64,000 bases of DNA, taken from IMG/VR virus record IMGVR_UViG_3300032227_001172, positions 96,001 through 160,000 of that record; one strand, given 5' to 3'. The notes beneath the pieces were generated by a model, which was given only the letters and a program-made list of their open reading frames with translations, did no database searches and was not told where the DNA came from. The stretch's first letter is position 1. Each line of letters begins with the position of its first letter. This document shows, piece after piece, positions 1 through 4,596 of the stretch. The position numbers were made by a program, and so were the translations under genes. This DNA is from a virus (taxonomy: Duplodnaviria; Caudoviricetes).

Positions 1-3000
1 TGTTCGTAGCTGTCGTAAATTCTTCACGTCCGAAGCTAACCCTCTTCTCTCATTCTTACTTAATGATTTACTATTAGATAGACCGAGATTAATTGGAGCA
101 GCGTCTGTGAAATATTTTTCTAGTGTATCTTTTGGTTGTGATGATCCTCCAGCTGCAAACTTTACTCTACCACCGTTATTAAATTTATTAGGATTTTCAG
201 TAAAATATCTCTCGAACTCAGTTCTTGCTTTTTCAAAAGAACTACCATCTAGTGTTCTTTTAACTTCTGTTTCTATATTAGGTGGAAGATGAAATAAAGA
301 AGATGCGTTTCCGAGTCCATCAGGAAAATCTATGGCCCTATTACTTTCCAAAGTATCAATATTTAATCGATATCCTAATTTTTGAGCTAATGCCTGCTCT
401 AATAAGGCCCCCTCAATATTGCCTTCTCCAGTTTTAGTATACATTTTTGTATCGTCAAAAGATTCTGGTTCTTTATATCGATATGTATCAATTCCTCTTT
501 TTTTTGCTACTTTAATATTGTCTTCATTATCATCAATAAATCTTTCAAAAGCTGCTAAATTATCTGCTTTTGCTTTAGCAATATTAGTTCCTAATCCTTG
601 ACTAACCCCGGTAACATCTGAAGTTTGATATGGTAGTCCGAATCTATTTAATGTTGTAGCAACTAGATCAGCTGTGCTCTGTGGTCTGGCTGTTAATACT
701 CTAGTAAATCTTCTAACGATTCCAGGATTTTTTTTCTCGACCTCGGCTAATCTTTGTGCAAGTCTTGTCGGTTTGGCTTGAGCTAAGCTATCCGCTACTT
801 TATCTCTTATAGAATAACTAGGAAGATCCTCTGCTCCGGTCTTATCAACCATTTTTGTACCAAATGCTAATGTTTCATCAAAATCTATAGCTAATGGTCT
901 AAAAGGTCCAACTATTTGTTTGTCTGTCTGACCAAGTGGCCCCAAAGCTTCAGTAGCAGTAGTATCTTTAGCAAAATCTAAACTGGTTTGCCTTTGTTTT
1001 TCTCTTAGCCTTTGAACGTCTGATAAATATTCTTGACCAAACCCACGAATCATAGCAACATATTTTTGACCATCAAGTGGGCTATCTGGTCCAGTACTTA
1101 GTGTCCATTCCTTATCTTTTGCATAGCCTATTGGCTGTAATCCTGCTATAGCAACTTTCCTTATGCCTCTTATGCGATCTTCTTCATTTTTTGCTGCTGC
1201 TTTAGCTTTATTAAGAATACCAGCAACAACCAATGAATCAAGTTTACCAGAAATAATACTGTCTTTTCTAATTTTTCTTTGTAAATTTCCTGGAATACTA
1301 ATACCACGGCTTTTTATACCAGCTTCACCACCAAGATCCGACAATGTTTTTACCATAGCATCAGCTATAGCTTGTTCGATAGACTGATCTTGTTTTTTAT
1401 TTCTTAAAGCAATCTGACCAATCTCTCCATATAGTCCGACACTTGTTGTATCAGACTCTACCAAGTCTCCGTCCATGAATTTTTGAATAATTCCTCCTGT
1501 GGCTTTATTTTTAGGACGAATTGGTTTGCCTAACCCTTCTATTATTTTTTGATCATATACAACTGCCATTTGTTCATCTAAGTCTTTACCAGCTATTTTT
1601 TTGGCGCCACGTATATTCCTTTTAACCATTTCTTCTCTTATTGCTTGAGATGCTCTTTCTAGTGCTTTGTATTGAGGATCAACCTCTCCCTTCTTGCGAA
1701 GTTCAGGTTCCATTTTTTCTGCTAAATGTGCAGTCATAAATTCTACAACACTGCCGAAAGGCGCTGTCTTTAAATTTATTCCACTAGTCGGTATCTTTTT
1801 GGTTTTAAAAATATCTTGAATAGCCGGTAGAACTTTTTTAGATATTGGTGCAGATGCTTCTGGAAAACCAGATATTCCATCTTTAATTTTTACAGGATAA
1901 ATACCGCCCTTACCTCCAGTTCGCCGCATACCTCTTCTTGCATAGTCAGCAGCAAGACCTTCTTTATTTAATCCAAAATAAGCTCCAGCGCCTAGTAATC
2001 CACCGGGACTTTTAGTTACATCTAATTCCTCTAAATCATGACCGGTACCATGATAAAGTGTTTGATCAGTTACTTTACCACCCCTAGGGAATCTTTGAAC
2101 TTGTCCTCCCATTAATGTGTCTGCTATCTGATTTGGCACAAAATCTCTAGATTGTGTCCCACCAGTACCTGTCGCAGAACGAGAACTAATCTCTACAGGC
2201 CTAGGAGACCATAGTTTTTCTCTAGTCAGTATACTTTTAGCTATGTCCGCAAATCTATAAATTTGTTCATCTCTAGAAATATATCCTGGTGGCTTGGGAG
2301 GATCTGCTTTTCGCCCTACCTCTTCTTTAAAAGCTTTTCTAATTTCATTTTCTACTTTAGTAGGTATATTGGCTATGCCTTGTCTTTTGACTCTACTACT
2401 AATTTTATCAGCATTGGTTCCATATAATAAAAAAGGACTATTCAATGCTTGCTGAAAATCTGGTAATGTTATATGCCCAGAACCTTTTCTGCGCATAGCA
2501 TTATTAAAAGACTGTGGTAATGCTATAGTAAAATTAGGTAAAACTTGTATATCTTCACCATTTAAAATACTTCTAATTCTTGTACCAATCACTCTTTGTC
2601 CAGATACTCGCTCGTATTCTTGTGGGGTTACTGGCCTACCATACCTTGTAGGATCTATAGCATGCGCTCTAACAGTAGGTTCTTGCGGATCATATCTTAT
2701 AGCTGTAGCATCTTTTACTGCCCGTTGTTTTTCTTCGTCTGTACGATTATCTTGAACTATAGGATACAATCCATCTTCTGGCCTTGAGTTTCTTATGCGT
2801 GCTCTTCTACTAACGCCAGCTGCTGTATTGCTGCTTCCCGCCATAAATTTTTGAATAGACCCACCACCATTATTCATTCTAACAAGATTACCAGCACCAT
2901 ACTTTTGTACAGCGCTCTTTCTCATGACAAACTCACCAGGAGTTAGCATAGCAGGAACACTGTCAGTATTTCCGGCACCGGGTACACTGCCACCTTTTGC

Positions 3001-4596
3001 AAAATGACGAACATAGCCACCACTACTTAATCTTTGATTTTGTGCTCCTGTTCTAATACCACCAGCAAAACCTCTACCAAACTGTGTTAATGCTTGAAAA
3101 CCTTTAATAGCAAAAATAGCAGTTAGTGCCGGTAAGGCTCCTTTAACAGCATCGGCAACCGATATGAACGCGCTTGCTAAATCTAATCCTAATCTGACTA
3201 AATCTTGAAAACCTTGAGATTGTCCAATACTACGAACTAAAGCACTAAATTCTTCACGAACTTTAGCCATCTGATTAGCTAAACTAAGTTGTGCTGTAGC
3301 AGCATCTTTAGCTAATGATCCTTGTCCCTGTTGAGCAACATTTAATGCTTGTTGTGCTGTTGTAAATTGTTGAATAAGCGGAATAACTTTACCGATCTGT
3401 CTAAAACCACCAAGCTCTTCAACGATTCTGCTAAATCTGATGTCTCTAGGATCTAATGAGGATAAACCTGCTGCTAGTCTTCTAACAGCCTCATATGGTC
3501 CTACGAATTTACCTTCAAGATCTGTTAATGCTACTCCATAAGATTTAAGAGCATTAATAGTGTCTTCTCTTTGAATACGAGTAAAAATAGTTCTTAAGCC
3601 AGTAGCAATAGTTTCGGCGCTTTCACGAGTAGTAGCTCTAACGCTTGTAAATACAGCAATAAATTCATTTAGTGCGTCTGTTCCTTGGCTTACTCCCTTA
3701 CTAGCAGCAGCAAACACACCACCAGTTCTTGAAATGGCCGTAACAATATCACTAGCTTCAACAGCAAACTTAGCAGCAACAGCATTGATACTGCCCAAAG
3801 CTCCTTCTAATTGACTTGCACTAATACCAAACTGTCTCATTAATGCAATACTGCCTTCTACAGTACTATTTAGATCATCAAACGATGGAGCTAATGCCGA
3901 TCTAGCCAAAGCCTGTAAGGCTATCGATGTATCTCTAGCACTCAAACCGGCCTGCGCCAAGGTTTGTGCCACATTAATCAAATCCTGTGACGCAACACCG
4001 AGACCCGTGGATAGTTTGGTGATATTACTAACCAAAAATCCAAGACTTTGTACTGGAGTATCTGTAACCTGAGAAACTTTTACTAGCTGTTGATTAAATT
4101 GAATAAAGTCTTGAGTAGCATTAGTAATAGCATTAGATGCTTTATATATTATACCAGTAACAGTAGCAAATGCGGCAAAACGTCTAACAGCCAAGGCTGA
4201 CTGTCTACCAAACTCAGTAAATTCTGACGTAGCACCACGAGTAGCCGTTGCAGCTCTGTTATTGGCTTGTGTAGCTTGGTTAGCTCCTTGAGCAACCTGA
4301 TTCATGGTTTGCGGAATATTTTGTAAATTATTCGATAATAATCTTGCAGCGTTACCTAGTTGAGTAATAGATCTCGATGTAGTATCTGCTAAGGTTCTTG
4401 TTTGTTGCAGTGTTCTATTGAAGTCTTGAAAAGATCTACTAATAGTATTAATTTGTCTATTTGTCTGTTGATTGATCTGAACAGTAACATTAGTGTTTAT
4501 GCTACCTAGCTGGCGACGTAAATCACTAACGACCTGTCTAATATTAGACGGTCCTCGTAGATTAATTTCAGCAGTAAGATTAAATCCTCTAGCCAT
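1..4596 (-). CDS. Tape measure protein with C-terminal enzymatic cargo domains (3'-truncated, >1532 aa; not in ORF track)
   Basis: ATG at 4596 with GAGGA RBS. The frame MARGFNLTAEINLRGP... stays open to base 1. It has an Ala/Gln-rich helical TMP core, the TMP motif FAKGGSVPGAGNTDSVPAMLTPGEFV (~3003-2926), then ART-like, HAD and nuclease-like motifs. It lies after the tube and chaperone genes. Confidence 0.92.
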   Translation of the reverse strand, partial: MARGFNLTAEINLRGPSNIRQVVSDLRRQLGSINTNVTVQINQQTNRQINTISRSFQDFNRTLQQTRTLADTTSRSITQLGNAARLLSNNLQNIPQTMNQVAQGANQATQANNRAATATRGATSEFTEFGRQSALAVRRFAAFATVTGIIYKASNAITNATQDFIQFNQQLVKVSQVTDTPVQSLGFLVSNITKLSTGLGVASQDLINVAQTLAQAGLSARDTSIALQALARSALAPSFDDLNSTVEGSIALMRQFGISASQLEGALGSINAVAAKFAVEASDIVTAISRTGGVFAAASKGVSQGTDALNEFIAVFTSVRATTRESAETIATGLRTIFTRIQREDTINALKSYGVALTDLEGKFVGPYEAVRRLAAGLSSLDPRDIRFSRIVEELGGFRQIGKVIPLIQQFTTAQQALNVAQQGQGSLAKDAATAQLSLANQMAKVREEFSALVRSIGQSQGFQDLVRLGLDLASAFISVADAVKGALPALTAIFAIKGFQALTQFGRGFAGGIRTGAQNQRLSSGGYVRHFAKGGSVPGAGNTDSVPAMLTPGEFVMRKSAVQKYGAGNLVRMNNGGGSIQKFMAGSSNTAAGVSRRARIRNSRPEDGLYPIVQDNRTDEEKQRAVKDATAIRYDPQEPTVRAHAIDPTRYGRPVTPQEYERVSGQRVIGTRIRSILNGEDIQVLPNFTIALPQSFNNAMRRKGSGHITLPDFQQALNSPFLLYGTNADKISSRVKRQGIANIPTKVENEIRKAFKEEVGRKADPPKPPGYISRDEQIYRFADIAKSILTREKLWSPRPVEISSRSATGTGGTQSRDFVPNQIADTLMGGQVQRFPRGGKVTDQTLYHGTGHDLEELDVTKSPGGLLGAGAYFGLNKEGLAADYARRGMRRTGGKGGIYPVKIKDGISGFPEASAPISKKVLPAIQDIFKTKKIPTSGINLKTAPFGSVVEFMTAHLAEKMEPELRKKGEVDPQYKALERASQAIREEMVKRNIRGAKKIAGKDLDEQMAVVYDQKIIEGLGKPIRPKNKATGGIIQKFMDGDLVESDTTSVGLYGEIGQIALRNKKQDQSIEQAIADAMVKTLSDLGGEAGIKSRGISIPGNLQRKIRKDSIISGKLDSLVVAGILNKAKAAAKNEEDRIRGIRKVAIAGLQPIGYAKDKEWTLSTGPDSPLDGQKYVAMIRGFGQEYLSDVQRLREKQRQTSLDFAKDTTATEALGPLGQTDKQIVGPFRPLAIDFDETLAFGTKMVDKTGAEDLPSYSIRDKVADSLAQAKPTRLAQRLAEVEKKNPGIVRRFTRVLTARPQSTADLVATTLNRFGLPYQTSDVTGVSQGLGTNIAKAKADNLAAFERFIDDNEDNIKVAKKRGIDTYRYKEPESFDDTKMYTKTGEGNIEGALLEQALAQKLGYRLNIDTLESNRAIDFPDGLGNASSLFHLPPNIETEVKRTLDGSSFEKARTEFERYFTENPNKFNNGGRVKFAAGGSSQPKDTLEKYFTDAAPINLGLSNSKSLSKNERRGLASDVKNLRQLRT

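Follow-up and report, generated by a model that had tools for sequence, protein, structure and literature searches.

We analysed a 64,000-nucleotide (nt) stretch of viral DNA, called the window here, which spans positions 96,001–160,000 of IMG/VR virus record IMGVR_UViG_3300032227_001172 (Duplodnaviria; Caudoviricetes), a complete record of 230,691 bp with direct terminal repeats. At one edge of the window begins a gene for a protein of 5,078 amino acids (aa), which its family matches firmly place as a TP901-type tail tape measure protein (TMP) of an uncultured jumbo phage. This TMP is a slotted carrier, in which three hypervariable slots separate conserved blocks of scaffold. Copies of a spacer bracket the slots, and diglycine (GG) linkers string together the domains within them, at least ten modules in all. 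The multi-cargo slotted TMP is well supported as an architecture and unproven as a delivery system.

A tape measure protein of 5,078 residues

The TMP open reading frame (ORF) lies on the minus strand and is open from window position 4596 to position 1 and on to position 85360 of the genome, with 10.6 kb of the 15.2-kb gene beyond the window edge. A preliminary description, made from the letters of the window, had reported an ORF of more than 1,532 aa, and the frame indeed runs past the edge. The same description had counted more than 950 aa after its tape measure motif; more does follow, but the figure is really about 4,520 aa, about a third of the protein having been in view. The parts of the TMP inside the window are listed below, with the evidence for each in brackets (AF2, AlphaFold 2; pLDDT, predicted local distance difference test; ART, ADP-ribosyltransferase; h, hydrophobic residue; x, any residue).

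1–4596, minus strand: part of the TMP ORF inside the window, 1,532 of 5,078 codons (the other 3,546 codons lie at genome 85360–96000)
2827–4596, minus strand: scaffold block A, the conserved TMP core, aa 1–590 (PF10145 and PHROG matches, coverage by relatives)
2812–3021, minus strand: spacer copy 1, aa 526–595, holding the motif at aa 532–557 (motif and spacer search)
2110–2811, minus strand: cargo module 1, aa 596–829, basic and proline-rich (composition; no recognisable family)
2068–2109, minus strand: double GG linker, aa 830–843, GG-h-x-x-F then GG-x-V (left border of a cassette swap)
1498–2067, minus strand: cargo module 2, aa 844–1033, ART-PolyVal-like (PF18760 below cut-off; H-Y-D invariant)
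1471–1497, minus strand: GG linker, aa 1034–1042 (right border of the cassette swap)
913–1470, minus strand: cargo module 3a, aa 1043–1228, alpha/beta domain (AF2 pLDDT 82–93, model residues 11–180)
469–912, minus strand: cargo module 3b, aa 1229–1376, predicted HAD phosphatase (AF2 pLDDT about 90, fold searches, motifs)
175–444, minus strand: cargo module 3c, aa 1385–1474, PD-(D/E)xK signature (conserved signature)
145–174, minus strand: double GG linker, aa 1475–1484 (linker search)
1–144, minus strand: start of cargo module 4, aa 1485–1705, R-S-ExE ART, mostly outside the window (PF03496, catalytic residues)

Several lines of evidence identify the protein as a tape measure, as the preliminary description had proposed. 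PhageMin_Tail (PF10145, TP901 family) matches aa 192–383 (window 3448–4023) at 78.3 bits against a cut-off of 33.2 (E = 9.6e-22), and the TMP PHROGs phrog_28 and phrog_4211 match aa 41–506 (E about 1e-21). Block A is covered by all 119 relatives, at 53–99% identity. Glycine-rich hydrophobic segments of the usual TMP kind were found by hydropathy at aa ~466–505, 1975–2046, 3038–3067 and 4355–4401.

The gene is not an assembly artefact, because a single contig spans it and related loci keep its order and open frame. A Logan contig of 58,808 nt, from a run that is possibly the source sample, covers the whole TMP gene with zero differences; the order of a 289-aa gene followed by TMP block A is kept in 80 of 80 related viral loci; and in 75 of these 80 the TMP frame is open to the end of the fetched DNA, mostly for more than 3,000 codons. 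Two further sequencing runs (X3 and X4) cover only some parts of the gene, and nothing is drawn from them. No RNA dataset is listed among the sequencing runs that hold the TMP gene.

Scaffold blocks, spacers and slots

A coverage map of the 119 relatives divides the protein into conserved scaffold (aa 1–590, ~2100–2870, 3700–3950 and 4800–5078) and hypervariable slots that few relatives share (aa 600–2000, 2900–3650 and 4000–4800). The block at aa ~2100–2870 is a coiled coil, preceded by the glycine-rich hydrophobic segment at ~1975–2046, and the block at aa 3700–3950 is a pair of spacers. The preliminary description had pictured a tape measure core followed by a C-terminal train of cargo; the actual layout is one of scaffold blocks alternating with cargo slots.

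The slot boundaries carry the motif FAKGG..PG...DSVPAMLTPGEFV, which motif search places at aa 532–557 (window 2926–3003), the position first given for it. There it had been taken for a C-terminal tape measure signature displaced inwards, and it proves instead to be the first of at least six spacer copies, a repeated boundary of the slots. Copies of the motif stand at aa 545, 1762 (degenerate), 2825, 3710, 3911 and 4831, with a further degenerate copy at about aa 1725. The motif is the core of a spacer of about 70 aa with the pattern GG-h-h-YA..G..V.Y.P.GTDTVPAMLTPGEFVVN...L..IN...GG-h-h-YA, in which 11 positions are invariant and 17 nearly invariant across an alignment of 99 copies. A profile of the spacer finds 819 copies in 183 proteins of the family, most commonly four to six per protein. 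Within this TMP gene the copies are only 63–79% identical in DNA; as peptides, spacer copies share about 60–65% identity overall. Because the DNA copies have diverged this far while peptide positions are conserved, the repeat is kept by selection on the peptide rather than by recent duplication. A three-copy complex prediction of the spacer as a trimer node gave a score of 0.01 with an uncertain fold, from which no conclusion follows.

All other domain borders carry linkers of the form GG-h-x-x-[FY], often doubled (aa 830, 1034, 1475, 1704, 1799 and 2866).

Cargo of the first slot

The cargo of slot 1 begins with the basic module 1, which has no Pfam match and is common to only two relatives, P0003 and P0112. 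Across the double linker, module 2 resembles ART-PolyVal (PF18760), scoring 23.1 bits, below the cut-off of 31.2; six of eight homologues match this family. Its invariant residues, H849, Y873 and D1015, correspond to the H-Y-D active site given for this ART clade by Iyer et al. (PMC5512222).

The next region, aa 1041–1480 (52 homologues), gave a confident AF2 model (pLDDT 87) in three parts. Module 3a, the alpha/beta domain, has no Pfam or PDB sequence match. Module 3b carries the HAD motifs D1238-x-D1240-x-T1242, T1302, K1343 and D1355-D1356; among the 52 sequences, D1238, D1240, T1242, K1343 and D1356 are invariant, and T1302 and D1355 are kept in at least 90%. All of its top Foldseek matches are HAD enzymes. 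A VIA-align 2 search was led by the T4 Pnkp 3′-phosphatase (Z = 10.9), T4 PNK (Z = 10.1) and Pnkp1 (Z = 9.8), the last belonging to the Pnkp1/Rnl/Hen1 repair complex, and all other matches in both fold searches are to HAD proteins. The T4 Pnkp phosphatase aligns over 125 residues with a root-mean-square deviation of 3.4 Å, and it leads generic HAD phosphatases only narrowly (Z = 10.9 versus 9.4). A weak match of the domain to phrog_415 (E = 0.0012) agrees with the structural match to Pnkp. On this confident model, module 3b is predicted to be a HAD phosphatase that most closely resembles the 3′-phosphatase of T4 Pnkp. No Walker A motif or P-loop kinase was found anywhere in the TMP, and because the protein has no such kinase it is not an end-healing enzyme of the Pnkp type.

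Module 3c bears a PD-(D/E)xK signature, with E1400 in 51 of 52 sequences and D1423, E/D1444 and K1446 in all 52. Its part of the model comprises a helix, one clear strand and further helices (pLDDT 72–92); in the fold searches the HAD domain took up the hit lists, and an Atlas feature search with module 3c gave no usable match.

Module 4, beyond the second double linker, matches ADPrib_exo_Tox (PF03496) at 29.4 bits against a cut-off of 23.4 when aa 1481–1705 are scanned alone. The same family matches 25 of 29 copies of the module (best E = 5.7e-10). Among these 29 sequences, R1544 is kept in at least 90% and S1594-T-S1596, E1667 and E1669 are invariant, and iota toxin Ia can be aligned at the STS and ExE motifs. 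Because the catalytic residues of the cargo are conserved across sequences of 30–98% identity, we predict that the cargo enzymes are active.

These results can be set against the train of ART, HAD and nuclease domains that had been read from the window. Its segment coordinates agree with the domain borders to within about 30 nt, and the domain that it saw cut off at the edge is the second ART, aa 1485–1705. The HAD fold, an ART above its cut-off, the conserved H-Y-D triad of the ART-PolyVal-like segment and the PD-(D/E)xK signature bear the reading out; the model of the ART-PolyVal-like segment is poor (pLDDT 58).

Beyond slot 1, slot 3 holds two HExxH modules, at aa 4106 and 4569, and the slots also contain several modules without a recognised family. 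Their identification as LPD23 or LPD1 domains was considered and dropped: only Atlas leads of 0.81–0.88, below 0.9, pointed that way, and direct searches for LPD23 and MPTase-PolyVal did not confirm them, neither family having a match in the phage genome at E ≤ 1. PDB sequence searches with the cargo region, the HExxH region and a module-3 profile returned nothing meaningful. Pfam searches of the basic module, slot 2, the HExxH modules, the C terminus and the modules specific to P0003 gave only matches below cut-off, none of them interpretable; the best was SHD1 (E = 0.0011, 19.2 bits versus a cut-off of 23.7) at aa 4435–5183 of P0003. Across 149 representative cargo modules, a Pfam census found only ART, SHD1, AAA_30 and a few coiled-coil matches.

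Relatives exchange cargo at the linkers

The first 600 aa of the TMP match at least 945 metagenomic proteins of about 2,800–7,900 aa at 53–99% identity. A further 2,463 shorter proteins are also matched, many of them fragments; the shortest complete ones on large contigs measure about 1,960–2,400 aa. The family ranges in length from about 2,000 to 7,872 aa, with genes of up to about 23.6 kb. One protein considered as a short close relative, P0132 (2,540 aa), was set aside: its end falls within a spacer, and the gene call has probably been split or frameshifted.

The relatives differ in their cargo. Slot 1 alone differs by more than 2,500 aa between relatives, and the R-S-E ART starts at residue 572, 2136 or 3067 depending on the protein. 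Splitting 184 proteins at their GG junctions, a crude procedure, yielded 1,784 modules, which group into 541 clusters; 405 of these have a single member, and just four are found in over 90 proteins. When aa 590–1720 were searched against 1.84 billion representatives, only 91 matched, almost all of them giant TMPs; to judge from these matches, the cargo families are nearly confined to this giant TMP family.

The clearest exchange is seen in P0003, which is 98% identical to the TMP over aa 1–841 and 94% identical over aa 1032–4265. Between these stretches, the ART-like module (aa 842–1031) is swapped for an unrelated module of 366 aa, and the borders of the swap are exactly two GG linkers. P0003 also carries extra modules in slot 3 and, at 6,542 aa in total, is 1,464 aa longer than this TMP. 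In a second sample of the same study (run X2), the contig of a strain about 98% identical loses its match at the same two borders. Alignment of these proteins shows that relatives keep the scaffold and exchange cargo as whole cassettes at the linkers. Cargo variability among related TMPs, which had been put forward beforehand as a check, is thereby seen in three ways: in the coverage map, in the cassette swap and in the 541 module clusters.

The gene in its late operon

Because it lies on the same strand as, and downstream of, genes for the terminase large subunit (TerL), portal and fibre-like proteins, the TMP gene belongs to a late structural operon. From its upstream end, the minus-strand order is TerL, portal, fibre-like proteins, a 4,589-aa ORF, the 289-aa gene and the TMP, which is followed by ORFs of 1,527, 580, 550, 1,307, 533 and 2,631 aa. 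The annotated members within the window are:

59556–61592, minus strand: TerL, at the head of the operon (phrog_2, E = 5e-22)
57338–59503, minus strand: portal protein, at the head of the operon (phrog_2739, E = 5.5e-13)
4681–5550, minus strand: 289-aa gene directly upstream of the TMP (adjacent to it in the 80 related loci)

The 289-aa gene has no significant family match in PHROG or Pfam and is an unproven candidate for the tail assembly chaperone. The ORFs upstream of the TMP, of 97 and 289 aa, do not overlap. Searches for tail sheath families gave no match in the phage genome, and divergence leaves the tail morphology unsettled.

The 4,589-aa ORF (window 18835–32604, minus strand) has a single recognisable domain, an Ig-like He_PIG at aa 1299–1387 (E = 2.8e-11), and may be a fibre or decoration protein. 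Three large proteins (window 10269–13577, 40092–42287 and 51476–53353, minus strand) have in common an N-terminal or internal element of about 50 aa whose PHROG matches are to tail fibres, tail spikes and hyaluronidases; from these matches it looks like a common fibre-attachment module. Four tandem ORFs of 352–384 aa (window 35598–40080, minus strand) may encode a set of structural paralogues; the C-terminal domain of the last one (39022–40080) matches PHROGs of head decoration and fibre proteins. A 380-aa protein (window 17681–18823, minus strand) weakly matches the collagen triple-helix repeat (E = 0.0017). Just 3′ of the TMP, the 1,527-aa protein (genome 80749–85332, minus strand) contains a beta-roll LbR_Ice_bind match (E = 8.5e-07, slightly below cut-off), and the five further large ORFs after it have no family match. 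The large ORFs downstream of the TMP are presumably hub, baseplate or fibre proteins.

The spacer in cultured phages

No close relative of the phage itself turned up in a search of 50,697 cultured phage records. Its spacer does occur in cultured phages, in the tape measure genes of 177 of them, at one or two places each; they include phages of Gordonia, Mycobacterium, Nodularia, Brevundimonas, Ralstonia and Burkholderia. Gp16 of mycobacteriophage Douge (PDB 8zdo chain S) has two copies. Only the last 42 residues of this protein are resolved, as a trimer that plugs the baseplate hub (PMC13033339). The TMP of Gordonia phage AlumE (gp17, plus strand, positions 1135–7575 of the DNA piece examined) has three copies and carries an SLT transglycosylase domain at aa 1543–1633, with a spacer core (aa 1642–1680) directly after it. 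This single example, AlumE, suggests a general association of the spacer with globular inserts in tape measures. The spacer may mark TMP sites tolerant of inserted domains, which would be useful for engineering.

Some RefSeq records name spacer-bearing TMPs ‘endolysin’. In the T4-like cyanophages S-SM2, P-TIM68, Bellamy and SynMITS9220M01, the motif core is matched at 54–67% identity at about 7.5–8 kb of the records, in proteins annotated as hypothetical or ‘transmembrane’. Cyanophage S-SCSM1 (164235–164630) has a match of 35.5% identity over a longer stretch, in a protein annotated as lysozyme. By their motif, these cyanophage proteins may be unrecognised tape measures.

Proposed delivery of the cargo and alternative readings

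TMPs fill the tail tube, leave it ahead of the DNA, and form or enter a channel through the cell envelope. Because the TMP is expelled before the DNA, its cargo would enter with the first protein into the cell. In the tube TMPs form trimers, and ejection releases them (PMC13033339). The cargo enzymes could then act at once on host takeover or defence systems, in the manner of T4 Alt and polyvalent proteins. Cytoplasmic action is the natural reading given the substrates required: NAD+ for the ARTs, and nucleic acids or nucleotides for the HAD and nuclease parts. The spacers and linkers probably serve either to let domains, folded or only loosely so, thread through the tube or to let them be released by cleavage.

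We infer from the anatomy of the protein, which it fits, that delivery of cargo by the TMP is plausible, and we consider it fairly probable that the TMP is a slotted carrier that delivers its cargo. We are more tentative, at slightly less than even chances, about a wider proposal in which the whole family, in thousands of uncultured jumbo phages, would be a slot-based injection platform, combining a ruler and channel scaffold with interchangeable cytoplasm-acting effectors pushed through the tube ahead of the DNA. Effectors proposed for its slots would be ARTs, nucleic-acid end-modifying enzymes, nucleases and hundreds of other modules. If true, phages would have in this platform their own counterpart to polymorphic toxins, and polyvalent effectors would have a route by way of the tail.

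A number of points weigh against delivery or against its enzymatic content. Three copies of folded domains of 200–440 aa would not fit side by side in a lumen of about 4 nm, and housing folded cargo there would need stacking, unfolding or storage elsewhere. The TMP is a late protein, and its enzymes could act in the cell that produces it. The nuclease assignment of module 3c comes from its motif only; the ART-PolyVal-like module falls short of the Pfam cut-off, and the catalytic part of its model is below pLDDT 50. Pfam sees almost none of the 149 representative modules, so enzymes may be a minority of the cargo. Among the neighbouring genes, PHROG and Pfam annotation recognised no tube protein, frameshifted chaperone pair or hub.

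One alternative is a processed polyprotein: a protease, either of the phage or built in, would cut the single chain at its GG linkers or spacers, leaving only the scaffold pieces as tape measure, while the enzymes set free would be packaged on their own or simply end up in the infected cell. The strictly conserved GG junctions at every domain border would suit it, as would the two HExxH modules within the TMP, and zincin peptidases have been proposed to free other domains in polyvalent proteins (PMC5512222). Yet the HExxH modules are present in only 3–5 of 119 relatives and match no peptidase family in Pfam or in the direct MPTase-PolyVal and LPD23 searches, and a built-in protease is therefore not the general rule; moreover, scaffold is interleaved with cargo, so cutting would break the ruler itself. 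We think this reading unlikely. Somewhat less likely again is a late role of the enzymes, in the producing cell or in tail assembly, for example in modifying host or phage proteins or in clearing nucleotides, with the fusion to the TMP only linking their expression to the late genes. The position of the gene within the late structural operon is in keeping with this, but late action leaves unexplained why hundreds of unrelated modules sit at fixed, motif-bounded sites of a virion protein rather than in separate late genes, and why the cargo families are nearly confined to TMPs.

The least probable alternative, which we regard as quite improbable, is that the whole protein is a ruler for a tail of about 0.8 µm, with the enzyme-like segments as relics or structural filler. 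TMP length predicts tail length in known siphophages, large parts of this TMP are rich in helix-forming residues, and Gordonia phages with a TMP gene of 9,984 bp have tails of about 540 nm (PMC4982279). Against a ruler of this length, the modelled cargo is predicted to form compact alpha/beta domains rather than long helices, its catalytic residues are invariant, and the family spans a four-fold range in length on genomes of similar size. Further, scaffolds that are 94–98% identical differ by 1,464 aa, which at the Gordonia phage ratio would set their tails about 240 nm apart; by alignment, this gap between near-identical scaffolds argues against a strict ruler made of the whole chain. With scaffold and slots combined in one protein, tail length would no longer simply follow from TMP length.

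Should the slotted carrier indeed deliver its cargo, the tail tape measure would be a second major route, beside head-packaged proteins, by which enzymes reach the host before gene expression. The family would also be a rich, almost uncharacterised source of host-takeover and anti-defence domains, as its 541 clusters are nearly all invisible to Pfam. The genes of the family, 15.2 kb long in this phage and reaching about 23.6 kb in relatives, would also set a record length for tape measures; the 10-kb TMP genes of Gordonia phages were called among the longest in 2016.

Comparison with known systems

Three kinds of system are already known: tape measures that carry wall-degrading inserts, polyvalent proteins, and effectors of contractile injection systems (CIS) that resemble TMPs; full-text literature searches found no description of giant multi-cargo tape measures or of this family. 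The TMPs that carry peptidoglycan hydrolases, as in mycobacteriophages and Gordonia phage AlumE, are likewise tape measure scaffolds with an inserted globular enzyme and the same spacer. Their known cargo is one or two cell-wall enzymes with a periplasmic site of action, whereas this TMP carries at least ten modules, several of cytoplasm-acting types (ART, nucleic-acid phosphatase, nuclease signature). It is also 2.4–3 times longer (5,078 aa versus 2,146 aa in AlumE and 1,699 aa in Douge), and, unlike in the hydrolase TMPs, its cargo turns over between close relatives.

For two of the modules, T4 offers a counterpart. Module 4 is an R-S-ExE ART, and T4 Alt and the MuF-fused VIP2-like ARTs of actinophages are R-S-E ARTs likewise carried in the virion for use at infection. 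Alt rides in the head and the VIP2-like ARTs on the MuF head protein, whereas the ART here is part of a tail tape measure. The phosphatase domain of T4 Pnkp is the best structural match of the HAD module; unlike in T4 Pnkp, no kinase domain is present here, and the neighbour of the HAD domain is a domain with a PD-(D/E)xK signature.

Polyvalent proteins (Iyer et al. 2017, PMC5512222) are likewise giant chains of unrelated enzymes, encoded among virion genes and predicted to be injected. The TMP likewise combines several unrelated catalytic-type domains (R-S-ExE ART, HAD, PD-(D/E)xK signature and H-Y-D ART-like) in one polypeptide of a late operon, and it shares with polyvalent proteins strongly varying architectures; its H-Y-D domain is a candidate ART of the ART-PolyVal type, below cut-off here. 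The carriers of polyvalent proteins are MuF, portal, N4 vRNAP or relaxase modules, whereas the carrier here is a TMP core, which is none of these. Iyer et al. do not mention tape measure proteins, and they report that R-S-E ARTs of the Alt/VIP2 type are absent from genuine polyvalent proteins (PMC5512222).

Finally, the CIS effectors Sle1 and Tme (PMC13277306) combine a TMP-like coiled-coil part in the tube lumen with an exchangeable functional domain, toxins included. Their authors propose a non-globular state adapted to the lumen, with folding after ejection (PMC13277306). In extracellular CIS, lumen cargo is established and cargo capacity scales with tube length. CIS effectors are parts of bacterial nanomachines and have one C-terminal domain, whereas the protein described here is a phage tape measure with many internal, spacer-bounded slots.

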